Source of the DNA: an uncultured bacterium | GTDB lineage: Bacteria; Zixibacteria; MSB-5A5; CAIYYT01 | Assembly (NCBI GenBank): GCA_963726455.1 | Contig: CAVSCK010000003.1 | Location: 672,001 to 736,000, forward strand | Direction: 5' to 3' | Length of the DNA: 64,000 nucleotides | Part shown: positions 30,748 to 48,941 of the stretch, piece after piece | How the letters are laid out: every line of letters begins with the position of its first letter | How positions within the stretch are numbered: the first letter of the stretch is position 1 | Notes under the pieces: model-generated | What the model was told of the DNA's origin: nothing | Databases searched by the model: none | Seen by the model: only the letters and a program-made list of their open reading frames with translations | Made by a program: the position numbers and the translations under genes

Positions 30748-31284
30748 ATGAAGAGAATGTTTGGGTATCTGCTCGCACTGCTGCTGGTATTTCTCAGCAG
30801 CATTTTTCTGTTGAAGACAACGGCTCAGGCAGCGTCAAAGGGTGAATCCTTGCTCAACAAGGGTGATTCGATTGCCGTCTACATCGACGCTGAGGATTTC
30901 GACGCGATCAAGGCCTCCAAGGCCGGCGCCAAAGTAAAGATCAAGGTCTTGGACAACGTCGTACGATCCGGAGAAAAGCTGATCAACAAAGGTGAGCCGG
31001 TCTATGCGACACTCACTAAGAGGAGTCGTGGAGGCGGTTACGGTGGCGGAGGAAATATCACATTAGCCATCGACTCAACGCACTCCAGTGCCAAAACGAA
31101 GGTGCCTCTCAAGGGCCAGGTGACGCTCAAAGGGAAAGGCGCGGGCTTCATAAAGATATTCTACTATGTCCCGTTGTTCCCAATCGGCTGGCTTTTCAAG
31201 GGCTCGGATGTCGAATTTCCGGAGGGTAAGAACGTTTTCAAGCCGGTAGTCGCCGACGACACGCCCGTTTATTACGAACGGTAG
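30748..31284 (+). CDS. Secreted hypothetical protein (possible TrbI/VirB10-like beta domain)
   Basis: Signal peptide and GGAGG RBS; pattern 'V.DNV...G..LI.KG.PV.A......GGG.I.L.ID....VPL.G ... KG.DV.FPEG'. Confidence 0.65.
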   Translation: MKRMFGYLLALLLVFLSSIFLLKTTAQAASKGESLLNKGDSIAVYIDAEDFDAIKASKAGAKVKIKVLDNVVRSGEKLINKGEPVYATLTKRSRGGGYGGGGNITLAIDSTHSSAKTKVPLKGQVTLKGKGAGFIKIFYYVPLFPIGWLFKGSDVEFPEGKNVFKPVVADDTPVYYER

Positions 31285-31349: not shown

Positions 31350-31380
31350 AGCGCCGTCAGGAATCTTTCCTGACGGCGCT
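31350..31380. terminator. Terminator hairpin between the convergent 30748 gene and the T6SS operon
   Basis: 14-bp perfect stem AGCGCCGTCAGGAA/TTCCTGACGGCGCT. Confidence 0.8.
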
Positions 31381-31397: not shown

Positions 31398-32216
31398 TCA
31401 GACTTCCGGGGACAGCAAGGTTTCCAGCACTGCCACATCCTTGTTCTCAATCGCTGAAGCCAATGCCTGAAGATAGGCGTCGATATCGTTCGCTTGCATA
31501 CAACATACCTTGATGTGGTTCTCACCAACAGCGGCGAACTCAAGCGCGCCTGCTTCCGGCGCTTCATATCTTGAAGAATATGCCAGTGACAAATCGAGAT
31601 CTTCTGACGGCTTGAAAACAAATTCCGACCAATTGATGAGCTTGCGGCTGGCAGATGGCAGAAGTCTGATTAGCCGCAGGAGATATCCATTTGAATAGGG
31701 CGTATTCCTGTCGGCATACAGCACCAGCCGTTGACCGCTTAGCAAGGCAGCGAGATTCCTTCGATAGTCGTCGAGATCGATGTCAACCAACTCCGACAAC
31801 CAGACATCATCGCCGACCGGGTTCTCGATTTCGAGTTCACCAAAATTCGCCAACTGTTCGGCGGTTCCTCCCGAAATCAGAAAAGATTCCAGTTTGTGAG
31901 GGGAGTAGTTGAACGACTGATACTGATCGGAAAACAAAATTGCAGAATGCCTCAGTAACGCTCCCCAGCGGCCGGAGAAATCTCTGCCGACATGGCTAAC
32001 CTTGGTGATTGCGGCTTTCTCGTCATCGGGTGATTCACGATACCACTGAACCGAAATTGACGACTTGAATTCCTCGTTCTTGCAGTCACCAAACTGGTCA
32101 TAGAGATTTATCAGCCAGACCTGTAGCGCCTCCGTAATGCCATCGGACCGGTAGATCACATGCTGCGATCCCGGTGTATCGGGAAATGTACCGTATATCA
32201 GGTGGTCGATCTTCAT
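31398..32216 (-). CDS. GAP1-N-like domain protein (GTPase-associated; last gene of the T6SS operon)
   Basis: 'IDHLIYG....G...IYRS.G' and 'HVGRDFSGRWGALLRHSAI' resemble the GAP1-N2 signature 'G.D.SGR.G....H'; lies directly after the GTPase gene. Confidence 0.6.
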   Translation of the reverse strand: MKIDHLIYGTFPDTPGSQHVIYRSDGITEALQVWLINLYDQFGDCKNEEFKSSISVQWYRESPDDEKAAITKVSHVGRDFSGRWGALLRHSAILFSDQYQSFNYSPHKLESFLISGGTAEQLANFGELEIENPVGDDVWLSELVDIDLDDYRRNLAALLSGQRLVLYADRNTPYSNGYLLRLIRLLPSASRKLINWSEFVFKPSEDLDLSLAYSSRYEAPEAGALEFAAVGENHIKVCCMQANDIDAYLQALASAIENKDVAVLETLLSPEV

Positions 32217-32287
32217 TGGTGCATGGAAGATTGATGAGCCGGTGGCGAGCTTATCATGTTCACACACGGAACGGTGTAGCAGACATA

Positions 32288-34150
32288 TTAGGGTAACTTG
32301 GGTGGCTGTCCCGATTTGAGCTTGACGACAATCCCGTAATCCTTTCCGAAATCAAGGGTGTAGCCCTCGGTGAGCTTCGGATAGAAAGTTTCAATCGGAT
32401 TCTCGACGTCCTGTGGCACCGGTTCACCCGTGCTGGAAGGACTGAGGTCGATGAACTTCGCGTGCACCGGGGCGTTGCCTATTCCGGTCACCTGCTTTTC
32501 CACTTTGGGTGAATCACCTAGAAGATTCGCGAAGTCGACCGGTGGATTGTCACCGACCTGAATCACGACCTTGCTTTTCGGACGGAGGTTCTCGACTGCC
32601 AGAGTGATCTGGAACGGTAGTATCTGTGCCGTCGCCATGCCGGCCTTGAGTTGCGCAGGAGACGCCTCTACTTGCTTCACGAATACAGCATCGAGACTAT
32701 CCTTGGGATGATCCTGGAAAAGTTTGGTGATACCGGCTTCAAGCGCCGCCTGTTTATCGGTAGCCGGCAAAGTTGCCACCGAATCTTTCAGCCGCTTGAA
32801 ATCATCAGCAGCGGCTTTGGTTTTTTCATCGTAATTCGGCTTCGGCGGTTCTTTCTTTTCCTGTTCGGTTTTCTCGACAGAAATGCGACTATCAATAAAC
32901 TGCTGTCGTTCTTTTACAAACTGAATCAGCGGCGCGGCGCCGAAGAACTTGCTGACAGGCGTCTTGTCGTAGTAAGCGGTGTATTTCTCTTTGATGACTT
33001 TGGCCTGGTTCTCGGTGAATTGGCCGTTACTCGTCCGCAACTCGTCCACCAACTTGGTCTCCGCGCGGTCCAGCATGCTATAGAGCTTCAACTGATTGTA
33101 CAGGTTGACAATGCAGAACAGTGCCACCCACATCAAGCAGAGTGCAAACACCCACTTCACCAGGTATCGCCAGAATGCTTTGCGCTTATTGAACATGATG
33201 CGCCGGAATGCCCACTGGAGCGGATCGGCTACGCCGGACGAAGTCAAATCGCGCGGTGGCTCAATATCGCCAGTCGGCCGCTTGGCGATCGCGCCGGTCG
33301 AAGACACGAAGAAGACCTGGAAATCGAGCGTATAGGCACTCACCGAGTCAATGAAATTCGCCAAGGTGTGGCTGATACGCTCGGTCGTCTTGGCCCATAC
33401 CTCGCCAAAACGGCGGTTGTTGACTTTGACAAGTCCGCGGATGAAACTATCCTTGCGCCGGCCTTTGTATAGAGATGCACCACCCGGCACGAGATCGACG
33501 GGATTGATCTTTGAGAATCCGTCCAGGAAATCGGCCTTGGTAATCACGATACCCACCGGCACGCGCTTGGGCACGCAGTCATGCAGGTCGTGCAGGATGG
33601 TCTGAAATGCGGCGATCTGCTCCCGCAACAAGACATCAGTCTCTAGCACCGAAGCGTCAAGGAAGAACAAAGCCGCGCGCGCAAAGGGGAAGAAGCGCGC
33701 GAACTGTTTGCGTAACTCGCCCGGCTGGGCAATCGAGAGGGTTTCTCCCTTATAATCAACGGTATAGAACTTCACGCCTTTGCGAACCGACATGTCGAGG
33801 CCGAATCTGAGAATGCGCGTTTCGGACGTCATCGTCGGGAATTTGCGCTCCCCTTCGATCTCAACTTGCCGGCCTTCTTTGATGCGCAGCAATTTCCCGC
33901 GCATCATATTGTAGTTCTCGATCAGATTGGCGGCGGTATCATTGTCCAGAGGGGACAGTTTGAAATCTTCGTTGCCCTTTAACAATTCGTAGAGCACTGA
34001 GAAGTAAACCGTCTTGCCCGCGTTGGAATGCCCGAAGACGAGCACAACATTATCGTCATGATCAAATGGCGCGTCCGCTGCCTTGGGAGGCGCAGCCGAC
34101 TGCTTCTTGAAAATACCGAAGGCCTTCTTGACAAGTTCCAATGGGCTCAT
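32288..34150 (-). CDS. Membrane-anchored TRAFAC-type GTPase (double-GTPase-2-like domain, TM helix, extracytoplasmic domain)
   Basis: G1 GHSNAGKT, G2 PTMT, G3 DYKGE, G4 TKAD, G5 VSSTG and 'GVADPLQW'; TM helix YLVKWVFALCLMWVALFCIVNLY after a basic patch. Confidence 0.75.
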   Translation of the reverse strand: MSPLELVKKAFGIFKKQSAAPPKAADAPFDHDDNVVLVFGHSNAGKTVYFSVLYELLKGNEDFKLSPLDNDTAANLIENYNMMRGKLLRIKEGRQVEIEGERKFPTMTSETRILRFGLDMSVRKGVKFYTVDYKGETLSIAQPGELRKQFARFFPFARAALFFLDASVLETDVLLREQIAAFQTILHDLHDCVPKRVPVGIVITKADFLDGFSKINPVDLVPGGASLYKGRRKDSFIRGLVKVNNRRFGEVWAKTTERISHTLANFIDSVSAYTLDFQVFFVSSTGAIAKRPTGDIEPPRDLTSSGVADPLQWAFRRIMFNKRKAFWRYLVKWVFALCLMWVALFCIVNLYNQLKLYSMLDRAETKLVDELRTSNGQFTENQAKVIKEKYTAYYDKTPVSKFFGAAPLIQFVKERQQFIDSRISVEKTEQEKKEPPKPNYDEKTKAAADDFKRLKDSVATLPATDKQAALEAGITKLFQDHPKDSLDAVFVKQVEASPAQLKAGMATAQILPFQITLAVENLRPKSKVVIQVGDNPPVDFANLLGDSPKVEKQVTGIGNAPVHAKFIDLSPSSTGEPVPQDVENPIETFYPKLTEGYTLDFGKDYGIVVKLKSGQPPKLP

Positions 34151-35061
34151 CGGTACGTCTCCACGACACTATTGGTCTGTTTCAATTCAAGTATTTTCGC
34201 GCGGTGTTGCTTTTCCCAGAATGGACGCACACTCACCGCGGCATAAAGAAATAAGAGAGTCAGAACCAGATAGACGATGTAAACCGGCCAGCGGTCGCGA
34301 AGCACATGAAACACAAAGCGGTAATTGACCACCGACGTAATTGCCGAACCGATCGAATCGAAGAATTTCTTAATCGCCAGGACAAACCGGCTCTTGCCAC
34401 GATAGATATCGTTAACATTGAGATACCACGCCGCAAATTCGCTTTGGTCAGACATTCGACGAAGTTCTTCCTCGGGTGCAAACGAGCGAATGTCAGCTTT
34501 GCGCCCTTGCAATGTGCTGGCGGCGATGTGCAGCATCTTTTTCTGCCATGAATCAGTGCGAACAATTCTCGTAGCGGAGGAAGACACCTGATCTGTTTCG
34601 CGGAAATTGGCCGCAATTTGCGCGTAGCGATTCAGGAGCATCGACTTTAGCGCGTTTTCCTGCTTGCCAAAACGGCGGATTTTCTCGCCAAAAATCAGCG
34701 GCGCTACGGTCATTTCGATGAATTGGCTGTCGTCGGACGTGCCGCGCAATTTCTTGGCGGCCAAAAATGCGTTCTGGCATTGTTGCGGGGGGCGTCTGAC
34801 ATACCAGAAATACAGTGGCAGCAGGTTGGCTACCACCAGCGACAACGGCTGTGCCTGCCGGGGAACGGTATTGACGCGAAGCTTCAAGTGCTCGTCAATT
34901 ATGTTTCCATTTTCACCGGTCATGTCGAGGCGGTCCAGTTCATTGAAGTATGCCTCACTCTCGCGCAGAAACACGTCGGCCGAAAAATCCGGCTGTTGCT
35001 TCTCATAGCGATTGAGCTGGATGAAGATCGAATTGATCAGCGCTTTCAGTTTTTCCGACAT
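34147..35061 (-). CDS. Hypothetical protein with a single C-terminal TM helix (TssL-like topology)
   Basis: Helical soluble N-terminus and TM segment VYIVYLVLTLLFLYAAVSV near the C-terminus; 6 nt after tssK, with an ATGA overlap into the GTPase gene. Confidence 0.65.
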   Translation of the reverse strand: MSEKLKALINSIFIQLNRYEKQQPDFSADVFLRESEAYFNELDRLDMTGENGNIIDEHLKLRVNTVPRQAQPLSLVVANLLPLYFWYVRRPPQQCQNAFLAAKKLRGTSDDSQFIEMTVAPLIFGEKIRRFGKQENALKSMLLNRYAQIAANFRETDQVSSSATRIVRTDSWQKKMLHIAASTLQGRKADIRSFAPEEELRRMSDQSEFAAWYLNVNDIYRGKSRFVLAIKKFFDSIGSAITSVVNYRFVFHVLRDRWPVYIVYLVLTLLFLYAAVSVRPFWEKQHRAKILELKQTNSVVETYR

Positions 35062-35067
35062 ACGCTC

Positions 35068-36543
35068 TTATCGCGACCTGCTGAAGATCGCCACATGGTT
35101 CATCTTGACCGCTTCCAGCGCGGCGCGATCCACCTGTCCGTCGATAATTATATTCAGACGATCCAGCCGACTGCTCTTAAGCGGGAAATATTCGTTGGGC
35201 TGAATCAGCCAGAAGTCGGGATTTGTAACGTCGTCGACCGGCTTGCGTGCCACCGATGCGGCGGCGATGTCGTCAACTTCGTTGGCACCCAGGTATATGA
35301 TAACGTTGCTGGCATATTGAATCGGGAGCACCTTTTTGTCGAGCCGCACAATCACGTCCTCGGTACCGCGCGGATCGACACCGTCAATGATGATGTGGTG
35401 CCGATTGTTGCGGAATGAATACTTGACGGCGCCGTGATGTTGCAGAAGGAACCGGAAGCCGTCACGTTCGATTGAATCGGCAGCCCTTCCAGCGGCGCCA
35501 GAGGCATAATAGCTCAGAATTGCCGCGACAAACTTGAGCGCCTTCTCGGTGTCGTCAAAGAATTGCGTCATTTGATCGTAACCGTACTGGCGAGTCTGGT
35601 AGTCACGCAATTCAGGAAGGACCGTTCCGCCGGCAACAGTGCCCGAATCTACGGTCACTTGCGCATTGCGGACATATTCCCGCAACTCGGGATAAATCAG
35701 AAATCCCTGCTGAAATCCGCCCACGAGATCAGTAAAGGAATCTATCAAGGCGCGGCTGCCAACACCGGCAAAACCGTCGAACAAGCGATTGTAGCAGTAA
35801 TTCACAAAATGCAGCAGTGTCTCGGCCTGCAGGAAGACGCCGCGAATGGTTTCTTCCTCGGCTGCCGAGGGCCGGCTCTTCGTCTTGGCACGAACCTCGG
35901 CAATTGCCGCCAATCCGACCCGCTGAATCTCGTCGACCACTTTGCGGAGGCGCTCCATGCGCGAAACCACGGCCTTGCCACAGGTAGTATTCAGCACGGC
36001 AGGAACAAAGTCGGATCTGATTTCGAAGTCGTTTCCGGCGCGTACCAACTCCGTAATTTGAAATCCGCAGGATGAACTAAGACTCTCGGACGGGCCTACC
36101 GAAAGAGTCAGCCGCGGAACCTGGAACGGAAACCGACTCAACTGTTCGCCCGGAAGCGGGTCGCCAAACATTGTCCGATCTTGCGGCGCGGCATATAAGA
36201 AGATCGGCAGTCGCTCGCGAGATTCTTTGGCCAGATCGATCTTCAGTTCCACGGAGTGATACTTGGTGAAATCTTCATTGACATGTATCGGAGTTCCATT
36301 CGGCATCAGTGCGACGCACCGGGTTACTGATAAATAAAGGATGTTGCCGTCGCGGCGTAATTGCAGTTCCAGCGGTTCGTTGCGTATGGTCGCGGGTTTC
36401 GCAATACCATAGCCGCCGGCCAAGTTCGATGCCGCCCAGCGGTTGAGGTTGAGTGCGAAAGTCTCCTGCTGGTTCAGATGGACGCTGGATACCAGCATGC
36501 CATCAATCCAGTTAACTCCCCAAACATTGAATTCATCCATCAT
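35068..36543 (-). CDS. tssK: T6SS baseplate subunit TssK (Bacteroidota-type)
   Basis: N-terminal 'VNWIDGMLVS..HL.QQE', 'C.ALMPNG..I', 'R..FGDP' and 'DFVPA' motifs; position after tssG. Confidence 0.78.
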   Translation of the reverse strand: MMDEFNVWGVNWIDGMLVSSVHLNQQETFALNLNRWAASNLAGGYGIAKPATIRNEPLELQLRRDGNILYLSVTRCVALMPNGTPIHVNEDFTKYHSVELKIDLAKESRERLPIFLYAAPQDRTMFGDPLPGEQLSRFPFQVPRLTLSVGPSESLSSSCGFQITELVRAGNDFEIRSDFVPAVLNTTCGKAVVSRMERLRKVVDEIQRVGLAAIAEVRAKTKSRPSAAEEETIRGVFLQAETLLHFVNYCYNRLFDGFAGVGSRALIDSFTDLVGGFQQGFLIYPELREYVRNAQVTVDSGTVAGGTVLPELRDYQTRQYGYDQMTQFFDDTEKALKFVAAILSYYASGAAGRAADSIERDGFRFLLQHHGAVKYSFRNNRHHIIIDGVDPRGTEDVIVRLDKKVLPIQYASNVIIYLGANEVDDIAAASVARKPVDDVTNPDFWLIQPNEYFPLKSSRLDRLNIIIDGQVDRAALEAVKMNHVAIFSRSR

Positions 36544-36583
36544 CAGTTTCACCCATTTAGAACTTGAGGTGCAATATATCTTG

Positions 36584-37501
36584 TCATGCTGTTTCCCGCA
36601 AGAACGTCGAGAAACCCAGGTAAGCCGTACGAGATTCTTCCCCCGGCACAAACGGAGACACGCCGGGAACGAAGTTGTATCGCACCAGAGCGCGCTGATG
36701 CGCGGGCGCGAACAACACTGTCAGATTATCTACCAGATCCCGGCGCGTTCCGGTCGGCGCGAGATCGCGGATATCGGATATTTCGAGGCCATTTACATTT
36801 ATCATGAAAGTGGAGAAATTCTCCTCAAAGGTTGATCCCGGGACAAAATCACGTCCGAGCCGGGAGTTCGCCTTGCCGAGAGAATTTCGAAAAGGCTCGG
36901 GCACGAGATTCTCCTCCGGAATGTTTTCATCGACCGTAACCTGCTTCTTCAGGAATGCCGGCAGTACTCTCTCATAAAGCAGTTTCCTGCCACGGAAGAA
37001 CGGCGCGAAGAAACGTAGCAGGAGCAGGAATCGCCGGTCTTCCTTCGCTATGGACGGCAGATCGCCGCCGAAACGGTCCCAGTATAATAGCTCTGCATCG
37101 CTGTCGTCGATACAGAATAACAGTCTGAGTTTGAGAATGTGGAAGGCAATCCAGAAACGGTACGTGATAGTATCGAAGGCGCTCCAGAACTCAAGGTACT
37201 TGTTTTCCATGACTCCCGGGTGGTGGTCCGACTCATCCATCTGTTCCACGAAAAAGGTGTCAGGGAAATGGTTCTTGAAAGACGGCAGATATGCCGCCAC
37301 CACGCGCTCCTCACGCCTGGACGTACGCGCCGTAAGGGTGCGGATCGCCTCAATGTCGGTTACGAAACCGCCCTGAGCTTCATGACTGATAAATGCGAAT
37401 TCCGCCGCATCAATTCCCAGCGAAGCCAGCAGAAGTGAAAACTCGGTGAGACGGATATGCTCGTTGATGCGGTAATCTGTGGCGACAAAACCGGTTTTCA
37501 T
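36584..37501 (-). CDS. tssG: T6SS baseplate subunit TssG
   Basis: About 300 aa after tssF with an ATGA overlap; 'LG...SRLG.DFV.G' and terminal 'YLGFST.L' resemble T6SS-iii TssG. Confidence 0.72.
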   Translation of the reverse strand: MKTGFVATDYRINEHIRLTEFSLLLASLGIDAAEFAFISHEAQGGFVTDIEAIRTLTARTSRREERVVAAYLPSFKNHFPDTFFVEQMDESDHHPGVMENKYLEFWSAFDTITYRFWIAFHILKLRLLFCIDDSDAELLYWDRFGGDLPSIAKEDRRFLLLLRFFAPFFRGRKLLYERVLPAFLKKQVTVDENIPEENLVPEPFRNSLGKANSRLGRDFVPGSTFEENFSTFMINVNGLEISDIRDLAPTGTRRDLVDNLTVLFAPAHQRALVRYNFVPGVSPFVPGEESRTAYLGFSTFLRETA

Positions 37502-39252
37502 GCTTCCACCAATCGCGCTTCCAGATGCAGGTTAAGCGGCGTGTAGCTATCGAGATATTCTGAAAGGCGTTGAACCAGGAATCGCCGTTCATCATCGGAA
37601 ATCTTCACGTCAGTACGAAGTCGCACATCAACTATCACCGACGGCAACAACCCGCCGGCGGTGCGGCTGACTCCGCGCGCGGCTTTGGCTTCGACAATTC
37701 GACTGTCAAAGTTGCGCGTCAGATATTCGATTTCTCCCTCTGACAATGCCACGCCGTGGTTGCGCAGGAAGAACCCCGTCAGGCGCTTCATCTCTTCGCG
37801 CGAACGAACGTCCGAGCCACCCGACGAAGTCACCAGATTGCGGATAGTTTGTATCTGCGGATGCGGCTTTGCCAGTTCAAAATCGATTTCGGCGCCGATC
37901 CCGTTGCCACTGTTGCCCTCAGTCACGGAGTATTCTACCACCACGAAATCGGGCGACGCTTTGCCGGTGGGAACAAAATCAAATTTGATTTTCAGCCCGT
38001 CTTCTTCTTCCACAATCATATATTTGCGAGGATTTCCAAAGGCCGTGAGGTCGAGATGGTTCGAATACTCGTCGTCATTGGAATCCCAGACGCGGTCGAT
38101 CGAAAACAGCCGGTCCGGCAACGAACCCGCTTCTTCATCTTCATACTCGAAGAGGTTAACTTCCAGCACCGGCTGGCCCATCGTGTACTTATTGCGATGA
38201 TTTTTGCGGCGGTTGATCGCCAGAATCGTGTTGCTGTCGAAGAAACGGAACTTACGCAAATCGCCTACACGTTCGTCTCTGGCCAGATCGATTCGCAGCC
38301 ACAGACGCGGTGCCTTAAGGCCGCTGAAGTCGATGTGCGAAAACTTGCTTTGCAACTGAGGCGGCAAGAGCATCTTCTCTGCCTTCGCATATTGTTCCTG
38401 CGGAACATGCACAAAACCCTTGGCGGGCGCCAAATAGTGCTTGAAATGCCAGAGCAGACGGCCCGCAGTCAAGAAATCTGAACTGTACAGCCGACTCTGA
38501 AAACTGCTTTCGAGCTCAAATTCGCGGATATCGAGATGCTTGAATATCTCCAGTCGGTCATGGAAGTTTCCCGGCTTGAACGGTGGGGTACGTTGCCCCG
38601 TCGTCTCGACATGCCAATCTACCCAGTTGAGCATCTGTCCGGCCGGCAAGTCCGGTCCGGTATACAGTCTGATGGCGTCGATATCCTCAAGAGGCAAGCC
38701 GGTGGTTATTCCTATATATATGGTACCGCCCAATGGTGGTGGGGCGCTTCGCTGCATCGTGCGGTAGTGCGATGACTGCAGCGTTTCTTCCCACTTGTCC
38801 GCCTCCGGCGGGAGCGCCTTGAGCACGCGGAAATAGTCGCCCGATACGAAAAATACCAGATCGGCGTTGATATCGAAAATGTCCTGGTCATGAAGAGGAT
38901 AGAACGAATAATCGCGCTGCTGCGCGCCTGGCAAGCGACAGATGAATTCCATTTCGGTGTCGACCTGTGCGCGCTTGTCGGAGCAGGAACAAGATAACAT
39001 GGTGAATGCCGGTATGGGCCGACGCAGTCCCGTGACAAAGAAATTCGTGATCATCGTGTCGATGACGGTCTCGGCGGCCTGCTTGAGTTTGTCTTCAGTC
39101 TGAATCGCGTGGAAGGCGAAGCCCTTGAGCATGAGCAGAAGCGCCGGATCCAACTGTTTCTCGCCTGATGGAACCTGATAGCCCCAGAAACGCAGCCGGT
39201 CTACAAGTTCATTATATACGCGCTCTTCGCGATCTGTCCACTTGGCGTTCAA
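37498..39252 (-). CDS. tssF: T6SS baseplate subunit TssF
   Basis: 'WG.......LDP.L.LML', 'RPIPAF', 'N....INR', 'T.G..GNGI' and 'SSGG......EE' motifs; baseplate-J-like C-terminus. Confidence 0.78.
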   Translation of the reverse strand: MNAKWTDREERVYNELVDRLRFWGYQVPSGEKQLDPALLLMLKGFAFHAIQTEDKLKQAAETVIDTMITNFFVTGLRRPIPAFTMLSCSCSDKRAQVDTEMEFICRLPGAQQRDYSFYPLHDQDIFDINADLVFFVSGDYFRVLKALPPEADKWEETLQSSHYRTMQRSAPPPLGGTIYIGITTGLPLEDIDAIRLYTGPDLPAGQMLNWVDWHVETTGQRTPPFKPGNFHDRLEIFKHLDIREFELESSFQSRLYSSDFLTAGRLLWHFKHYLAPAKGFVHVPQEQYAKAEKMLLPPQLQSKFSHIDFSGLKAPRLWLRIDLARDERVGDLRKFRFFDSNTILAINRRKNHRNKYTMGQPVLEVNLFEYEDEEAGSLPDRLFSIDRVWDSNDDEYSNHLDLTAFGNPRKYMIVEEEDGLKIKFDFVPTGKASPDFVVVEYSVTEGNSGNGIGAEIDFELAKPHPQIQTIRNLVTSSGGSDVRSREEMKRLTGFFLRNHGVALSEGEIEYLTRNFDSRIVEAKAARGVSRTAGGLLPSVIVDVRLRTDVKISDDERRFLVQRLSEYLDSYTPLNLHLEARLVEA

Positions 39253-39255
39253 ATG

Positions 39256-39603
39256 CTAGATCTCCCAGGAAAGGTCAAAGCGTTGCCCGTCACGAGCGGT
39301 GCCATATACGCGACAAGTAAAGGTGGCAGTGATGGTCTCTTCAACCTTGTCGGATATTGTCACGTTTACGGAGATGCCCATGTACCGCCGGAATTGTTCG
39401 ATGACGTGATTGCGAACTTCAGTCTTAAGGTCGGTGGAATATTCGGGAGTAAAGTATGCCGAACGACAGCCCAACTCGGGATCAGGGCGATAGCTGCCCA
39501 GCTCGGTTTCAATGAGAAACCGGGCAAATTCCTCCGATTGGCTGCTGCGCAGGAAGCGGCAGTCTTTTATTTCTAATGGTACCCGAAGCGCTTCGTCGGC
39601 CAT
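39256..39603 (-). CDS. tssE: GPW/gp25-family baseplate protein TssE
   Basis: 'LI.T.LG.YR.DP.LGC' gp25 motif; 115 aa between vgrG and tssF. Confidence 0.75.
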   Translation of the reverse strand: MADEALRVPLEIKDCRFLRSSQSEEFARFLIETELGSYRPDPELGCRSAYFTPEYSTDLKTEVRNHVIEQFRRYMGISVNVTISDKVEETITATFTCRVYGTARDGQRFDLSWEI

Positions 39604-39606
39604 AGT

Positions 39607-41466
39607 TTAGTTTAGTGAAATCGGCGATCCCTTGACGGTAACCGGTCCTTTCCCGCTAATATCCATCATTGCCGCACTCTGTTGCAGGTTCCCCTGCGCA
39701 TCCAGCGTCATCATGCCGCTGCTTTTGACTTCGGCGCCGCCGCCGCCTGCTTTGATCTTGCAGGAAGTCTTGGCGTCAATCGACACGTTCTGCGCCTCCA
39801 ACTTGAAATCACCGTCGGCCTTAAGAGTAATATTACCTTTGACGGTGAGGTTGTAATCTTTATCGGCAGTGATGTTGATTGTATTCTCTTTCGAATCTAT
39901 GATCATCGTGTTCTTGCCGGTGCGATCTATAATCTTGATCTTACCCGAGCCATCTTTATCATCGATGGCGATCTGGTGCCCCGAACGTGTATAGATAACC
40001 TTGAGATCATTCTTGCTGGCTTCGCCGTCGCTGCCCTTCGGATCGATTGCACTTTGCGGCGGCTTGTCGGTGCCATTCCACATCGCCCCCAGCACGATCG
40101 GCATGTTGGGATCGCCCATTTCAAAGGCGACCAAAACCTCGTCCGCAATTTCGGGCATGAAGTAGATACCTCTATTATTTCCGGCATACCCACTGATCGT
40201 GCGCAGCCAGGGACTGATCAGGTCGCTGCCATTTTCACCCTTGGCAGGGAATTTTACTTTGACGCGTCCGCGTAAGTCCGGATCAACATTATCGGTGACG
40301 ATCGCGGTTATCGGATCGGTACGCACTTCATGCTTGACCTGCGGCCAGGGCGGACAGGCGCTTTCCAGCGGGCTTGCGGTCACAAAATTATGGTAATCGG
40401 TGCCGGTCTCGATATGGTGCATGATTGAGGTTATGATAAAGACGCCCGTGTAGGTGTCGCCCATGCCTTCAAGTTGAATCGCGTCCCCAACCTTCAGTGA
40501 CGGGACGTTAGTTTGCAGGTGACATTCAGTCAACGAGCCAAGTTGCTCGGCCTGCATCGCTTCCGTGACTTGCTTTTCTTGCGCCGCCTTGGAATCGCCG
40601 CGCGTGGGAAGTATCGCTGACGACACCTTGCCCATATTCTGTCCCGAGGCGTTGTAGGCCTTCTTGGCTATCCCCGAGAATTGCGTTTGGGGAGCCGGCT
40701 GGTTCTTTTCGATTACGCTCTTGGCGGCCTCGTCCCAGGTGTAGTTCTTGTACTTGAAGCCGGTCACATTCATTTTGAGATTCGCCGAGCCAATGTGTTT
40801 CTGCCAGGTCAGAGTATGAGTGTTCCGGCTTTTCTTCTCCTCGACGACCAGCTTCTTGCCGTCATAGAACACCCAGCCCGGATAAGTCTTCCATCCAGAT
40901 GTCAGATATTCCCAGTCGGTCAAGCCCCATTTGGTCCAGAAATCTCTGGTGGCGGCGCCGCTAACTGAGATTGACCCGGTATCGATATTGTATTGACCCA
41001 TAATCGTGCGGACGATGTCCTCAAATGACATATTCTCAAAGAAGACGTATCCCCGGCTCTGATCGGTGAGAATCGTCGGGCTCATGGCTTCGATTACGAT
41101 TCTGTTCATTTCACCGCCGGTGTTGGAAAACCCGACGTTCGTAATCAATCCAAAAAATTCAAGTGCCTCTCCGGCGGCGACATACTCGTCGGCGGGAGTG
41201 ATCTTAAGACTCACGCTTTTGCCGATCGTATCCTGATACTTGGTGGTCGACACAAACTCCCGGCCCTGGTTGGCGGCCTCGATGTCGAGCGAAAATTCCA
41301 GCACCAACCGATGATGAGCAAAGACGCTTTGCTCAAGCCGGAACGACTGCAACGGCCAGTTGACGGCGACGTTGGCTATCATAACCGTGGCTGACACCAC
41401 GCAGCGTGAGTGCACGTCGGCTTCAGTCATTTGCGGTCGGTTACTATTGGGATCAAGTTCCGGCAT
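39607..41466 (-). CDS. vgrG: VgrG spike protein (Bacteroidota-type, no C-terminal extension)
   Basis: gp27-like N-terminus; gp5 OB fold 'A.VTDN.DP..RGRVKVKFP...SPWLR....AG..RG.YFMPE..DEVLVAFE.GDP..P.VLG.MWNG'; 'TRSGH.I..DD'; beta-helix ending ISLN. Confidence 0.92.
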   Translation of the reverse strand: MPELDPNSNRPQMTEADVHSRCVVSATVMIANVAVNWPLQSFRLEQSVFAHHRLVLEFSLDIEAANQGREFVSTTKYQDTIGKSVSLKITPADEYVAAGEALEFFGLITNVGFSNTGGEMNRIVIEAMSPTILTDQSRGYVFFENMSFEDIVRTIMGQYNIDTGSISVSGAATRDFWTKWGLTDWEYLTSGWKTYPGWVFYDGKKLVVEEKKSRNTHTLTWQKHIGSANLKMNVTGFKYKNYTWDEAAKSVIEKNQPAPQTQFSGIAKKAYNASGQNMGKVSSAILPTRGDSKAAQEKQVTEAMQAEQLGSLTECHLQTNVPSLKVGDAIQLEGMGDTYTGVFIITSIMHHIETGTDYHNFVTASPLESACPPWPQVKHEVRTDPITAIVTDNVDPDLRGRVKVKFPAKGENGSDLISPWLRTISGYAGNNRGIYFMPEIADEVLVAFEMGDPNMPIVLGAMWNGTDKPPQSAIDPKGSDGEASKNDLKVIYTRSGHQIAIDDKDGSGKIKIIDRTGKNTMIIDSKENTINITADKDYNLTVKGNITLKADGDFKLEAQNVSIDAKTSCKIKAGGGGAEVKSSGMMTLDAQGNLQQSAAMMDISGKGPVTVKGSPISLN

Positions 41467-41497
41467 TTGTTCCTCTGGTTTTGTCCGTGTGGCGGCT

Positions 41498-41534
41498 AAA
41501 AGAGCGGGAAGGGAGCGTGTACTCGCCTTCCCGC
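41498..41534 (-). terminator. Internal terminator-like hairpin between hcp and vgrG
   Basis: GCGGGAAGG...CCTTCCCGC stem followed by TCTTTT on the minus strand. Confidence 0.65.
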
Positions 41535-41558
41535 CACTATCTCAGTGCCCCGATGGGC

Positions 41559-41973
41559 TCATTTGCCTTTCCAGTCCTTCTTGTACTCGACACCGTTGAC
41601 ATCCACCAACTCGGCGGAAATCTCGAAGTACTCGTACATCTGCTCGTTCGGCATGGCCGACGTGGACGGAACGTGCTCTTCGTAGTGCGTGACAAAGCCG
41701 TTCTGCCACTTGAGAACCTTCAGTTCCTTCTTCAGGTTGGGATCCTTGAAGGTGATCTCACCGGCCTTGCGATTGACCTGCGAAGAGTCAAATGCCCAGC
41801 TGCGCGATGCCGACGTTGTCATCTGACTCGCGGCTGATCTTGATCTTCAGACCACACGGGATCGAACTGGGCTTGCCGTCCGTGGTGTCATGAGGCGTGA
41901 AGATTTCATAACTGACCGAGCGCACTTTGTCGAACTTCTCGCCGTCAATCTTGAGTTCTACTTCTTGTGCCAT
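41559..41973 (-). CDS. hcp: T6SS tube protein Hcp/TssD (Bacteroidota-type), one +1 frameshift near 41799
   Basis: Joined 137-aa product has 'DGKPSSIPCGLKIKISRES', 'GEITFK......K.LKWQNGFVTHYEE' and 'ISAE...VNG..Y.KDW', matching the T6SS-iii TssD pattern. Confidence 0.85.
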
Positions 41974-42082
41974 TGGTTGGCTTCCTCCTACTATCGTTTA
42001 CAGTCTCTGTTTCTCTGTTTCTGGGCTTCTTCCTGCCGCTTTCACCCATAACTGTCGAGATACCCCTCGGAGCGGTTCAGAA

Positions 42083-43497
42083 TTATTTTACCGCCGCCTG
42101 ACCCGACTCGTCGACCAGCGCTTCCAGCTTGACGACGTACTGCTTGATCGGCGTCTTGGTGTTGAGCGCCACTTCCAGCAACATCTGCTGGTTTTCGATC
42201 ATTTCGTTGGTCGCAATCACGTTGCAGGTAAAACCGTTGATCACTTTGTTCCGCTGCAGCAGACTCAGGAACTTGTTCAGATCGCCGTCGATCGACTTCT
42301 TCAGCTTGTCGTCGAAAGCCCTTGTAGACCTGCTGGTTGAGATAATTGCGCATCGTCTTGTAGATGTAATCGTAGGTGCGCTTGATCGTATAGTTGCGGA
42401 ACTTGGGATCCTTGCTCAGCGTGTCGGCGCCCATCGCCACGACATCACCCACATCACCCTGCCAGTTGAGCACGCAGTTGACACCCTTCTCGTTGATCTT
42501 GGTATTCTTGGCTTCCGACAATTTGATTCGAGTTCGCGAAACTCCGCCCAGCTTGCCGTTGGCTTTACCGGCGGACGGCGCCTGGATACCGATCTCGTTA
42601 TCATTTTTGTATATCAGGCCGGCTACCATCGGTGACGGCGGCAGCCACATCGCTTCTTTGTCGAAACGGCTTTCCGGCTTCTCGGCCTTGACGTAGTTGC
42701 CGAATACCGAGATGTACGCCTTGTACTCGTCGTTGCCACGCAGATCATCGTAAGCCGGATCGTCCAATTCGTCCGACCAGTTCTTCGTAAGTGTCGAAAT
42801 GTTTGAAGTCGGTCAGAATGTGCAGCTTGTTCGGCAGTCCCATATCGCGGGCGACCGTATCGATGTCTTTCACTGACCCCAGATAACCGGGAATAGCAGC
42901 AGAGGGCGTAGCTGTTCTTGATGTCGTAAAGCCCGTAGATATCGTGAATCTGCCGGTTGATATACTCGAACTTTTCACGATCGTTTGGATCGGTCAGATC
43001 GCTGATACCGACATTGGCGAAATAGGCATAGATTTCCGAATCCGGGCGCGCCGCAGCGTTCTGGAAGAACAGATCGATGCCGCGGATAGGCGGTTTCCAG
43101 CGGACGAATCGTTTCGTGAATGTTCTTCATGTTCTCGACGAGATTCTTGTCCGCCGCTTCTGATCATGTTGTCCAGTTTGTCCTTGAATTCGTCAGAGGT
43201 GACGTCATTCGGCCCTAACTGTTCAGCCCAAACTTGCAGACGCTGTTTCAGTTGGTTACGGCGATCTTTGAATTCGTCGGAAGTGAGAAACTTATTAAAT
43301 GATTCGTTCTTGGGATCGAGGAACTTTACACCCTCGATGTGTAAACCATCCTGGCTCTTGAAATGAGACAGGTGGTCTTTGACAAGCTCGTAGCCGACAA
43401 AACCGACTCCGAGGATGTCTTTTAGGTCAGCTTTTTCCTTGACCTTGGCTTCGGCTTGTGCCGATTCCTTTTGCAGATCTTTTTCTTCGTCAGCCAT
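42083..43497 (-). CDS. tssC: T6SS sheath large subunit TssC (DUF5458-type), five +1 frameshifts
   Basis: Reconstructed 469-aa product contains 'IRPLETAYRGIDLFFQN', 'AIPGYLGS', 'LTDF', 'LPPS..VAGLIY', 'AGK.NG' and 'RTYDYIYK'; insertions near 43161, 43085, 42901, 42774 and 42315. Confidence 0.85.
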
Positions 43498-43514
43498 GAC
43501 TTCCTCGCAGCGGT

Positions 43515-43970
43515 TTACAGTTGATCGATATATGATTTAATGACCTTCATGAATTCCGCCTTCTTCTCCGGCGATGACAGGTCTTTTTTCAGCTTGGAAT
43601 TCGGTTTTTCCAGCAGGTTTTTCAGATTGCGCAGGATTTCCACTTCGTTGTACTTCGACTGAAGGTACTCATTCTTCTGAATGATCTCCATCGAACCGAA
43701 ATCCTTCATCGCGTTGAATTCCAGTTCGACCGTTTCTTCCGAGCCATCCTGCTTCTGGACGGTAACTTCCTGCGACGGACGGAAGGTCGTGAAGACTTCC
43801 TTGAGATTCTTGCAGCGGGTCAATTCCGGTTCGCTCTCTTCGCGCGAATTCAATTTGGTCAAGTAGACCATTTTGTTCGACGGAAGCAGATCGACCGGAA
43901 TAGAATCGCTCTTTTCCTTGTACTCCGTAGTGCCGATATGGGGAGCGGCAATACGATACTGGTCTGCCAT
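43515..43970 (-). CDS. tssB: T6SS sheath small subunit TssB (Bacteroidota-type)
   Basis: 'EVFTTFRPSQEV......G......EF..MKDF' and terminal 'LSSPEKKAEF...I' match the T6SS-iii TssB pattern; AGGAGG RBS. Confidence 0.82.
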   Translation of the reverse strand: MADQYRIAAPHIGTTEYKEKSDSIPVDLLPSNKMVYLTKLNSREESEPELTRCKNLKEVFTTFRPSQEVTVQKQDGSEETVELEFNAMKDFGSMEIIQKNEYLQSKYNEVEILRNLKNLLEKPNSKLKKDLSSPEKKAEFMKVIKSYIDQL

Positions 43971-43986
43971 ATAACCTCCTTAGAAT

Positions 43987-45060
43987 CTATACTTTCACAA
44001 TTTCAAATTCGTCTTTGTTCATCCGCACTTCGACCTGCGAACCTTCCGGAAAGCGGCCGTCAATGATCGCCATCGAGAGCGGATTGAGAATCTCCTTTTC
44101 AATAAGCCGCTGCAATGGGCGCGCACCCATTTCGAAATTATACCCCCGGTCAGCCAGCGCCTTCTTGGCGTCAGCCGCACAGGTAATGGTCATCTTCTGA
44201 TCTTTAAGAATTCCATTGATCACTTTCAACTGGATATCGACGATAGCGCCGATGCCGACTTCTGACAACGGCCGGAAGATAATCCATTCCAGACGGTTCA
44301 GAAATTCGGGACGGAACTTGGTCTTCAGCACGTTCATCATTTCTTCCCGCTCGACCGGCTTGTTTTCGCGATAACAGTCCAGAATATAGTGGGCGCCGAA
44401 GTTCGAGGTCAGAATTATCATCGCGTTGGTGAAATCGATCGTGTTCCCCTGCCCGTCGGTCAGTCGGCCGTCGTCCATGATCTGCAGCATGATGTTGAAA
44501 ACATCGGGGTCCGCCTTTTCGACTTCGTCGAAAAGTACTACCGAAAAAGGATTGCGCCGCACTTTTTCGGTCAACAAACCACCCTGATCGTAGCCGACAT
44601 ATCCCGGCGGCGCGCCGATCAGCTTGGCGACGGAGTGCTTCTCCATATATTCCGACATATCAAACCGGACGATATTCGATTCATCGTTAAAAAGATATTC
44701 CGCCAATGTCTTCGCCAATTCGGTCTTGCCGGTACCGGTCGGTCCCAGGAATAGGAATGAGCCAATCGGGCGGTTATGCCGCTTGATTCCCGAGCGGGAA
44801 CGCCGTACCGCTTCCGAAATTGTCTTGATCGCGGAATCCTGGTCGACCACGCGTTTCTGCAGGTAGTCTTCCATATGCAGCAGCTTGGTCTTTTCATCTT
44901 CCATCATTCGCGACACCGGAATTTTGGTCCAGCGGGAAATGACAAAGGCCACGTCTTCAGGAGACAGTGTGGGATCGGTCTTGAAGACGAACTGTTCCAG
45001 TCGCTCCATCTTCTGAATGTTTTCCTTAAACCTGCTTATTTGCGTTTGTTCTTTTTCCAT
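43987..45060 (-). CDS. ClpV/TssH C-terminal half (AAA+ D2)
   Basis: SRWTKIPV, Walker A GPTGTGKT, pore loop GAPPGYVGY, Walker B LFDEVEKA and GARPLQR; no IGF loop. Confidence 0.88.
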   Translation of the reverse strand: MEKEQTQISRFKENIQKMERLEQFVFKTDPTLSPEDVAFVISRWTKIPVSRMMEDEKTKLLHMEDYLQKRVVDQDSAIKTISEAVRRSRSGIKRHNRPIGSFLFLGPTGTGKTELAKTLAEYLFNDESNIVRFDMSEYMEKHSVAKLIGAPPGYVGYDQGGLLTEKVRRNPFSVVLFDEVEKADPDVFNIMLQIMDDGRLTDGQGNTIDFTNAMIILTSNFGAHYILDCYRENKPVEREEMMNVLKTKFRPEFLNRLEWIIFRPLSEVGIGAIVDIQLKVINGILKDQKMTITCAADAKKALADRGYNFEMGARPLQRLIEKEILNPLSMAIIDGRFPEGSQVEVRMNKDEFEIVKV

Positions 45061-45098
45061 ATTTCCCACTCAGTTTGATCGTGCTATCAAAGCAACGC

Positions 45099-46517
45099 TT
45101 ACTTGACCCGATCTTTCCAGGGTGCAAAGAGCTCATCGAATTCTTCATTAAACGCCTGTAGCTTCGACTTGATTTCCGGAGCGATCTTGGCGTCACTGTC
45201 GGTCTTAATACTGTCGCCTAGTTCCTGATTTAGTTCAGCGGCCATCTTCTTCAGCCCTTCCAGACTGTTTTTTGTGCGCGTACAGTTGAGTCGGAACGAC
45301 GCACAGGCCTCATCCAAAAGATCAATGGCCTTGTCGGGAAGGAAGCGGTCGCCGATGTATCGTTGCGACAGCCGAATTGACTCGTCCACGACCGAATCGG
45401 GAATGGCCAGACTGTGATGCTTGCTATACACGTTTCGGACGCCGGCCAGGATTTCCTGGGCTTCGTTGAATTTCGGCTCTTCCACCATCACACGTTGGAA
45501 ACGCCGATCAAGCGCCTTATCCTTTTCGATATATTTGCGATATTCTTCGTTCGTAGTCGCACCGATAACCTTAAACGCACCGCGTGCCAGTGCCGGTTTC
45601 AGCAGGTTCGCTGCATCCATACCACCGGCAGGATTGCCCGCCCCTACCAGCGTATGCACCTCATCGATGAACAATACGAGGTTACCTTTGCCTTTGGACA
45701 ATCTGGATACGAGGTTGTTGAATCTTTCCTCGAATTCGCCTTTATATTTGGCTCCAGCCACCAATTGTCCCAAATCGAGATTTAGAATGACTGAATCGTG
45801 AAGTTCGGGGGTGGTCTGCTTGTTGACGATCTGTAGCGCCAGTCCTTCCACCAGAGCCGACTTGCCAACTCCCGGCGGACCAACCAGAATCGGGTTGTTT
45901 TTCCGGCGGCGAATCAGCACCCGGCTGATATTGTAAATATCTTCCTGCCGCCCAAAAAAGTTGTCCAGCTCGCCTTTGCGGGCCTTCTCCGTAAGGTCTA
46001 CGCAGTACTTTACACCTTCGATGCCGACAGCGGTTTCACCGTCCTCGGTCGTGACCTGTGTTCCAGCGATTGACTGCACGACCTTCATGTCAGCCATCGC
46101 GTCAATTATCTTGCCTTCATCGAAATCGAGTCGGCGTAGGATTTGTTCCGATAGTGGCGAATCCTTTGAGACCAGCACCATCAGCACATGCTCTGGACGA
46201 ACTTCGGAATCGGAGTACTTCTCGGCTTTGTTGCCGGACGCAACCAACAGAGACTGCAGCGCCGGAGCTGCGGCGGGTTTGACTTCGTCGGTGGACAGCT
46301 TGCGCATTTTCGACAACTCATCCGCCAGCAAAGCTTCAAAATACTCGGGCTTCTTCCCAAGTTGCTTGAAAATGGCAGCGAGTTCGCCCCCTTCGTCGCG
46401 CAGCAACACGAGGAAGAAGTGGTTGGGAGTGATCTCGGCATGGAAGTAACTCTTCGCAAGTTCCTGAGCCCGCCGAATGCAATTTGTCAAGGTCGCAGAA
46501 TACGATCCTAAATCCAT
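45099..46517 (-). CDS. ClpV/TssH N-terminal half (Clp-N repeats plus AAA+ D1)
   Basis: [43 protein letters not shown] and [14 protein letters not shown] motifs; ends at TAA 45099. Confidence 0.88.
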
Positions 46518-46570
46518 ATGCTTCCTACCGTCTTTTCTGAACTATGTGCATTTAATGCGCTTAGCGATCT

Positions 46571-46599
46571 AACTTACCGCTCGCCATGTCAAGTGTCAA
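46571..46599 (-). promoter_or_regulatory. Candidate sigma70 promoter of the T6SS operon, TTGACA-17-TAAGTT
   Basis: Two tandem TTGACA hexamers (46594-46599 and 46587-46592); the distal one is 17 nt from TAAGTT. Confidence 0.55.
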
Positions 46600-48652: not shown

Positions 48653-48888
48653 TGCGTGTCCTTTTCACTTTCTGAAATGCATCATGTAGACGCGAACTTT
48701 GCGGCAGATTTCCAGGCGATCGCTTTATCGAGGCCTGATCGCCGCGCCCAGATCCTTTATTCAAATCCATTATACAAAGCTAGAATACCAAGTTCAAGAA
48801 ATGTTTTGCGTCCTTGCTGACCACTTCTTAGTACGTAACTTGCCTGCCGAACGTGCAATTGAATATGAATCCCCGATAAGGTCTTTTG

Positions 48889-48917
48889 TTGATTTTCTCA
48901 ACCTCCTGCGCTACACT
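48889..48917 (+). promoter_or_regulatory. Sigma70-type promoter TTGATT-17-TACACT
   Basis: Lies upstream of the AGGAG RBS and ATG 48942. Confidence 0.5.
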
Positions 48918-48941
48918 TACGTAGTGTCAGGAGTGCGAATC

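Follow-up and report, generated by a model that had tools for sequence, protein, structure and literature searches.

How a type VI secretion system (T6SS) is held in the cell envelope when its operon encodes neither of the known kinds of membrane complex is the question raised by a locus of an uncultured bacterium of the Zixibacteria (MSB-5A5; CAIYYT01). The locus lies in a stretch of 64,000 nucleotides (nt), hereafter the window (GenBank assembly GCA_963726455.1, contig CAVSCK010000003.1, positions 672,001 to 736,000 of the forward strand), and forms a row of co-directional minus-strand genes that runs without a break from position 46517 to 31398, as seen from the list of open reading frames (ORFs) together with Pfam and NCBIfam. 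The order, from ClpV (D1) to a GAP1-N-like protein, is the one given by the original prediction, which was made from the letters of the window, and the Zixibacterial origin supposed there is borne out by a congeneric relative. Of all parts of the T6SS, the membrane complex alone differs fundamentally between classes. Here, a core of the T6SS-iii type is accompanied by three proteins, p304, p620 and p178, which would constitute a third kind of T6SS envelope anchor, neither TssJLM nor TssNQOPR (rough probability 0.55). At about even odds, the proposal can be drawn more fully as a third membrane-complex architecture, centred on a bitopic GTPase that has two partners, one helical and tail-anchored, the other small and exported. 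It would serve an iii-like core in Zixibacteria and in one neighbouring phylum, and its GTPase would be kin to the DO-GTPases and perhaps remotely to the NTPase of TssM. The observations behind it concern gene content, conservation, co-occurrence, topology, GTPase motifs and the lack of matches to TssN/O/R and TssJ/L/M.

A membrane GTPase and its partners

The membrane GTPase p620 (620 amino acids (aa); 32288-34150, minus strand) consists of an N-terminal GTPase domain with the motifs GHSNAGKT, DYxG and TKAD, a single membrane helix (residues 328-354) and a C-terminal part of ~265 aa, whose helical and beta-sandwich domain is presumably periplasmic. Across 43 sequences of the family, G40, G45, K46, Y133, G135, K205 and D207 are invariant, and T47, D132 and T204 are conserved in at least 90%. 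The DO-GTPase2 model (PF19993) matches all 21 aligned members at E ≤ 0.01 (best 2e-7), and many homologues carry a precomputed PF19993 label; the window protein itself stays below threshold (E 0.0012, 19 bits against a cut-off of 27). The AlphaFold model (mean predicted local distance difference test score, pLDDT, 81.5) comprises a GTPase fold, a long helix, a helical bundle and a beta-sandwich, and all 50 matches listed by Foldseek are small or heterotrimeric GTPases, with no TssM chain among them. A PDB sequence-profile search with the p620 alignment stayed at chance level (best E 0.021), as did one with the p304 alignment (best E 0.16), and the periplasmic part of a long-form GTPase has no usable match in the Protein Atlas. 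In a set of 5.8 billion proteins, p620 has 34 homologues, of which the small number with a name are labelled Zixibacteria.

The stop codon of the p304 gene (304 aa; 34147-35061, minus strand) overlaps the start of p620 by 4 nt. Its product has a single hydrophobic helix at the C-terminus (257-281 in the hydrophobicity scan), that is, it is tail-anchored, and its model (pLDDT 80.6) is all-helical, with no match among PDB folds at E ≤ 0.001. The protein has no Pfam or NCBIfam match. A profile search of 1.84 billion representative proteins yielded 45 relatives, all of at most 343 aa; ten of these were scanned with Pfam and gave no credible match, two chance-level hits falling within one of them. 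By these searches, p304 appears to be an orphan family. Its place in the operon is nevertheless firmly kept. A scan by pattern across 185,579 species genomes returned 137 relatives, and 80 loci were kept as the base of all counts out of 80 given here; p304 adjoins the GTPase gene in 75 of them and tssK lies ahead in 72, most of the others being cut by contig ends. The synteny of tssK, p304 and the GTPase, which the original prediction proposed to look for in relatives, is found again throughout the phylum and in a second one.

The third protein, p178, is encoded beyond the end that had been set for the locus at 31398, which proved too short. The p178 gene (30748-31284, plus strand) is convergent with the operon, shares with it a hairpin at 31350-31380 and belongs to the locus. 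Its product, with a signal peptide, a beta-rich composition and a hydrophobic patch near the C-terminus, is the best match in the genome for a hidden Markov model (HMM) of a ~175-aa family (E 4e-11), as the alignment also indicates. Genes of this family directly follow the GTPase gene in 53/80 loci and stand inverted after p289 in a further arrangement (11/80). In the window's family, the place held elsewhere by the ~175-aa gene is occupied by p289, a soluble GAP1-like protein (289 aa; 31398-32267, minus strand). GAP1-N2 (PF20013) matches all three long members of the p289 family (best E 9.4e-5); the window copy, at E 0.0037, falls below the 24-bit cut-off, and the gene lies downstream of that of the GTPase, as expected of a GAP1 gene. 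In the Protein Atlas, its feature score is 0.96 with ten of the ten best matches in GAP1 families, and its recognition value is 2045, below the 2300 mark. The GTPase and GAP1-N domains named in the original prediction thus fall short of threshold on the window proteins and become convincing once relatives are included. Since p178 was found and p289 occurs in only 18 of the 80 loci (two of them from another family), the conserved module is p304, p620 and p178. The GAP1-like gene, previously counted as part of it, looks from these comparisons like a lineage-specific addition, and nothing supports the analogy with tagF that had been drawn.

In the proposed mechanism, p304 would be a cytoplasmic helical protein whose C-terminal helix sits in the inner membrane, and p620 would hold its GTPase on the cytoplasmic face and, across one membrane helix, a helical and beta-sandwich domain in the periplasm. 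Together, p304 and the GTPase domain may form a cytoplasmic hub that docks TssK, by analogy with TssL/TssM or TssN (Bongiovanni et al. 2024, PMC10781749). The periplasmic domain of p620 with p178 would make up the periplasmic part, and the module would span or gate the envelope. GTP binding or hydrolysis by p620 would act as the switch for assembly or firing, and in the window's family p289 probably regulates p620, by analogy with the DO-GTPase/GAP1 pairs of Kaur et al. (2020, PMC7159879). A complex prediction for p620 (1-380) with p304, run without controls, stayed at 0.02 where the mark is 0.32, and speaks neither for nor against an interaction.

Distribution of the GTPase and the core

The window's phylum is represented by 285 genomes, of which 144 carry the GTPase, in essence a single copy each, and 150 the T6SS-iii-type TssC; 141 genomes contain both, in line with the expectation that the terminal genes would accompany T6SS cores in relatives. 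The three genomes with the GTPase and no TssC are 64-78% complete. The nine cases of TssC without the GTPase comprise four genomes (58, 69, 86 and 97% complete) and five weak hits in family f9 (E 2e-7 to 8e-6). By family, both genes are present in 20/20 genomes of f1, 67/108 of f5, 4/6 of f10 and 5/10 of f16, the GTPase and TssC are found in 13 and 14 of 14 genomes of f6, 31 and 30 of 33 of f8, and 3 and 4 of 14 of f17, and most remaining families have neither. About half of the Zixibacteria share the system.

The GTPase also occurs in 22 of the 208 genomes of a second phylum, two loci of which come from metagenome-assembled genomes (MAGs) titled Krumholzibacteriota. Divergent GTPase relatives from this phylum (G309:C3:4702-5766 and G318:C1:203554-204606) lie in ORFs of 815-818 aa, of which the first ~375 profile positions only are matched. 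MAG labels such as 'Ignavibacteria', 'Calditrichota' and 'FCB group' (e.g. L060, L063-L068, L079, L096 and L111) were considered as signs of yet other phyla and rejected; several of the contigs belong to genomes grouped with the window's phylum, and the labels are unreliable.

Search for known membrane anchors

In the 100%-complete source genome, no protein passes the cut-off of the TssN, TssO, TssR, IcmF-related, DotU or SciN models, TssP and TssQ not having been searched, and the original prediction, which recognised neither anchor set, holds for the models used. TssN exceeds its cut-off in none of the 285 genomes of the phylum. Canonical TssM (PF06761) is present in 22 of them (families f3, f19 and f20 together with G113, G118 and G201), which shows that the TssM model works in this phylum and provides a positive control. 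None of these 22 genomes has the GTPase, none has the iii-type TssC, and in the five sampled, VipB of T6SS-i lies a few kb from TssM in every case. The phylum thus holds two mutually exclusive kinds of T6SS, and the exclusion of the GTPase module and canonical TssM is as expected of functional equivalents. Genomes with a canonical T6SS-i are G024-G026, G113, G118, G201 and G267-G284, with a TssM of ~1130 aa (e.g. L167, G276:C1:1568186-1572094).

The closest counterpart of the core is the T6SS-iii of Bacteroidota. The sheath and tube families of the locus are those of the Bacteroidota-type models (PF17541 and PF17642), ClpV, VgrG and TssE/F/G/K are shared, and in both systems the membrane-module genes lie beside tssK. 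However, TssN is described by Bongiovanni et al. (2024, PMC10781749) as a protein with five membrane helices encoded between tssK and tssG, whereas in the Zixibacterial operon tssK is followed by the genes of a tail-anchored protein and a GTPase, and TssN, TssO and TssR of T6SS-iii are not matched in the Zixibacterial system. The two further differ in that ClpV is here made by two genes and in that the hosts are Zixibacteria and the second phylum titled Krumholzibacteriota.

Relationship to TssL, TssM and TssJ

Could p304, p620 and p178 instead be extremely diverged TssL, TssM and TssJ, so that an iii-like core would have kept an inherited TssLM-type anchor? The sci-1 locus of Escherichia coli 042 invites the comparison, as the order after tssK is the same there, with a tail-anchored protein and a membrane NTPase bearing a periplasmic domain, and a small exported protein has its counterpart as well. 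With TssL and TssM of E. coli 042 as references, hhalign gave 0.8% for the p620 alignment against the single TssM and 0.6% for the p304 alignment against TssL. Set against an alignment of 13 TssM sequences, p620 reached a probability of 33% (E 4.5e-4), the 56 aligned columns falling in the NTPase core, where residues 159-214 of p620 pair with 183-240 of TssM and share the motif 'IPV..VI....D.L.GFS'; the periplasmic part of p620 matched nothing in the TssM alignment. A weak IcmF-related_N signal in 5 of the 21 aligned p620 members (best 0.0019) points the same way, yet it is outdone by DO-GTPase2, which matches every one of them.

The 33% match may be taken as a lead towards a remote kinship of the NTPase domains of p620 and TssM, not as membership in the TssM family. 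No DotU, IcmF-related or SciN match passes, the p304 model fits no TssL structure and has no DotU fold match, and p178 is no lipoprotein, as it carries no lipobox. TssM has three membrane helices. In p620 there is one, and the hydrophobicity scan passes nothing ahead of the GTPase domain. Its periplasmic part, 265-400 aa across the family, compares with about 700 in TssM and shows no detectable similarity to it, and the sheath and tube of T6SS-i are of another type than those found here. An extreme divergence from TssLMJ is therefore unlikely as an account of the module as a whole. Ordinary divergent TssL, TssM or TagF genes would have refuted the original prediction by its own terms; p620 is far from an 'ordinary' TssM, while the profile match leaves room for a remote relationship.

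Anchor or regulatory switch

The kinship of p620 raises a different alternative, in which the module was taken over from GTPase-centred conflict systems as a switch for regulation or sensing and controls assembly or firing of the T6SS, with either another anchor or a machine that does not span the envelope. Kaur et al. (2020, PMC7159879) describe the DO-GTPase/GAP1 pair as a membrane-proximal switch. The likeness to these DO-GTPase/GAP1-N2 systems includes PF19993 in 21/21 members, a GAP1-like gene after the GTPase gene in the window's family and membrane association on both sides, and the periplasmic domain could be a sensor. However, the paired GTPases, zinc ribbons, FNIII-repeat partner and effector domains described there are missing: each locus has a single GTPase gene, GAP1 is absent in 62/80 loci, and the Walker-B glutamate after DYxG is found only in the window's family. 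Defence models (PADLOC) gave nothing relevant for p304, p620, p289 or p178, the sole match being GajA at E 0.0078, limited to the P-loop. Moreover, the module sits inside a secretion operon and accompanies the core one-to-one across two phyla, no further membrane protein is conserved in the locus, and canonical TssM never occurs in genomes with the module. A switch without an anchoring role is thus doubtful.

Several points nonetheless weigh against p304, p620 and p178 as an anchor. Binding among the three and to TssK is a prediction from the genes, and kinship with DO-GTPase/GAP1 pairs points to a regulatory switch more than to a scaffold. The periplasmic part of p620 in the window's family, at ~265 aa, is short for spanning the periplasm, and an outer-membrane component is not evident, p178 having no lipobox cysteine. 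The TssN, TssO and TssR models gave no positive control in 14 control genomes, and the anchor search covered the TssN/O/R and TssJ/L/M models, with TssP and TssQ outside it. Among 20 neighbourhoods fetched separately (L032-L051), the stretch from clpV-D1 to the GTPase gene is colinear in 16, and in four (L042, L043, L047 and L049) the GTPase gene is separated from the T6SS core. In three of these detached loci (L042, L043 and L049), the ~175-aa gene is still beside the GTPase gene, and in L047 the contig ends just after it. Finally, if six insertions in tssC and hcp, described below, are real, the copy in the source genome is dead.

The T6SS-iii-like core

The core genes, all on the minus strand, begin with ClpV/TssH, of which the N-domain with the first AAA module (472 aa; 45099-46517; Clp_N, AAA, AAA_lid_9) and the second AAA module (360 aa; 43987-45069; AAA_2 1.9e-67, ClpB_D2-small) have a gene each. 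A conserved split of ClpV is unusual for a T6SS. All 16 colinear loci encode ClpV in two ORFs; the halves overlap by 4 nt at the stop and start in most of them, and a 29-nt gap separates them in the window. The small sheath subunit TssB follows (151 aa; 43515-43970; T6SS_VipA 26.9 bits at a cut-off of 24, TIGR03358 weak), then the large subunit TssC (42083-43497; PF17541 on fragments) and Hcp/TssD (41559-41973; PF17642 2.9e-12 on the 3' part), both with interrupted frames in this assembly. The intact proteins of a relative settle their type more clearly, with TssC matching PF17541 at 1.1e-71 and Hcp matching PF17642 at 4.5e-23, and neither matching the T6SS-i models, VipB-type TssC (PF05943) and T6SS_HCP, at E ≤ 0.01. 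The sheath and tube core can therefore be assigned by these Pfam models to a T6SS-iii-like type, as had been predicted. TssC has at least 120 homologues, all matches listed being at least 78% identical.

Downstream of hcp lies the gene of the VgrG/TssI spike (619 aa; 39607-41466; Phage_base_V, Phage_GPD, VgrG_rel, TIGR03361), and the baseplate genes come next. The gp25-like wedge protein TssE (115 aa; 39256-39603) has no Pfam match in the window and is assigned by position and size; within its own family, tblastn matches it to the 114-aa ORF that holds this place (66-71% identity), and in L035, a more distant locus, the corresponding 124-aa ORF matches GPW_gp25 at 4.2e-15. TssF (584 aa; 37498-39252) is likewise placed by position and size, with a weak TIGR02243 match, and its counterpart in L035 matches T6SS_TssF at 1.3e-4, below cut-off. 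TssG (305 aa; 36584-37501) reaches 37.7 bits with T6SS_TssG, for which the cut-off is 24.6. TssK (35068-36543; TIGR03353 1.1e-8) has 491 aa when read from the ATG at 36543; its longest ORF extends to 36651, and alignments with relatives begin at the first residue of the reading from 36543. TssG and ClpV thus pass their Pfam cut-offs, and TssK, TssF and TssE are assigned from weak HMM matches together with position and the gp25 match of a relative. With TssB/TssC, Hcp, VgrG, TssE/F/G/K and ClpV all assigned, the locus is identified from its genes as a T6SS, and the baseplate proteins TssE/F/G/K with the recycler ClpV set it apart from extracellular contractile injection systems.

A promoter had been proposed near 46.6 kb. 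No sigma-70-like promoter upstream of clpV passes in a consensus scan; by eye, two overlapping TTGACA boxes (46585-46598, minus strand) offer a possible -35 element, with a poor -10, TAAGTT, 17 nt downstream. The terminator of 14 bp placed at 31350 corresponds to the hairpin at 31350-31380, which has 14 pairs (nine G-C) and a 3-base loop and, lying between the convergent genes of p289 and p178, is probably a terminator-like site for both directions.

Surroundings of the locus

The flanks contain no integrase or transposase, and the neighbours are malic enzyme/PTA, squalene/phytoene synthase and endonuclease V; the T6SS locus is resident, as had been suggested. The gene of a von Willebrand A (vWA) protein of 545 aa lies on the opposite strand (48699-50336, plus strand), 2 kb ahead of the operon. 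TssR of T6SS-iii has a vWA-like domain according to Bongiovanni et al. (2024, PMC10781749), but the TssR model matches nowhere in the genome.

Two orphan PAAR genes of the source genome, G000 (G000:C5:34276-34548 and G000:C3:481853-482122), lie far from the T6SS locus. Seven of the fetched neighbourhoods have a PAAR gene upstream of clpV, and two more, the detached loci L042 and L043, have one immediately after the GTPase gene. The GTPase of L042, L043 and L047 (families f16/f17) follows PD40 beta-propeller and PEGA/CarboxypepD_reg proteins of periplasmic type. For L049 (G170), an assembly ridden with frameshifts was considered and rejected; its TssC is ~420 kb away, and the GTPase pair is simply detached. 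An ORF of ~800 aa lies just upstream of clpV in loci of several families (L035:546-2963, L041:748-3147, L044:445-2904 and L051:763-3144), and the window has none at that place. The L035 copy, the one that was scanned, contains LysM and SpaA-like domains, and the ORF could encode a peptidoglycan-binding accessory protein or an effector.

Interrupted frames of tssC and hcp

The original prediction took tssC and hcp as single open frames. In stop-to-stop translation, however, tssC is spread over three frames and hcp over two. Comparison with congeners (G001-G003) places extra bases in tssC near 43160, 43086, 42895, 42776 and 42314, and one in hcp near 41802, making six insertions of one base within 1.4 kb, none of them in a homopolymer. 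Are these insertions real, leaving the source organism with a recently inactivated pseudo-operon? This question concerns the present genome only and is independent of that of the anchor. The clustering outside homopolymers and the lack of frame-breaking indels in the other ten operon genes could be read in this way, and a check against reads found no public run that contains the stretch: none of the seven runs listed fits, each holding at most 0.05 of its words.

Yet no genes of the locus are better conserved than tssC and hcp, which show no sign of relaxed selection. Both are intact in 16/16 colinear relatives. With inserted columns ignored, TssC is 94.0% identical in amino acids to that of congener G002, with a ratio of nonsynonymous to synonymous substitution rates (dN/dS) of 0.039, and Hcp is 98.5% identical with a dN/dS of 0.016, the lowest values in the operon. 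Split frames are, moreover, a feature of this assembly as a whole: of 129 ORFs of at least 200 aa tried from 208 kb of congener G003, 73 have an orthologue here (identity at least 60%), and 11 of these orthologues, often neighbours of one another, are divided between frames. Because dN/dS is low and patches of indel errors occur across the assembly, the six insertions are most likely artefacts of the assembly consensus, and a pseudo-operon is improbable. Clusters of frame-breaking indels lie on contigs C3 and C4 of this genome (e.g. C4:129889-135548, C4:694599-698094 and C3:227460-230259), and gene calls from this assembly need care.

Implications for anchor evolution

A 2026 review distinguishes four classes of T6SS, i to iv, with iii confined to Bacteroidota (PMC13584744). 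No published description of a Zixibacterial T6SS of this kind was found in a literature of limited reach, the supplementary tables of Bongiovanni et al. and Kaur et al. lying outside it, and nothing relevant was found on T6SS subtypes or on DO-GTPases with IcmF. Whether the ancestor had an anchor of the TssJLM type, of the TssNQOPR type or none is left open by Bongiovanni et al. (2024, PMC10781749). A widespread iii-type core that is paired with a GTPase anchor of TssM-like architecture would offer a concrete test case for this question of anchor ancestry. If the anchor formed by p304, p620 and p178 is real and its GTPase has the kinship proposed, this lineage could be a missing link in anchor evolution, TssNQOPR having later taken the place, in Bacteroidota, of an ancestral GTPase anchor resembling TssM, and a GTPase/GAP1 switch would gate a secretion nanomachine. 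The locus links a GTPase family of conflict systems to a secretion machine, and it extends contact-dependent antagonism to abundant uncultured phyla of sediment and soil.

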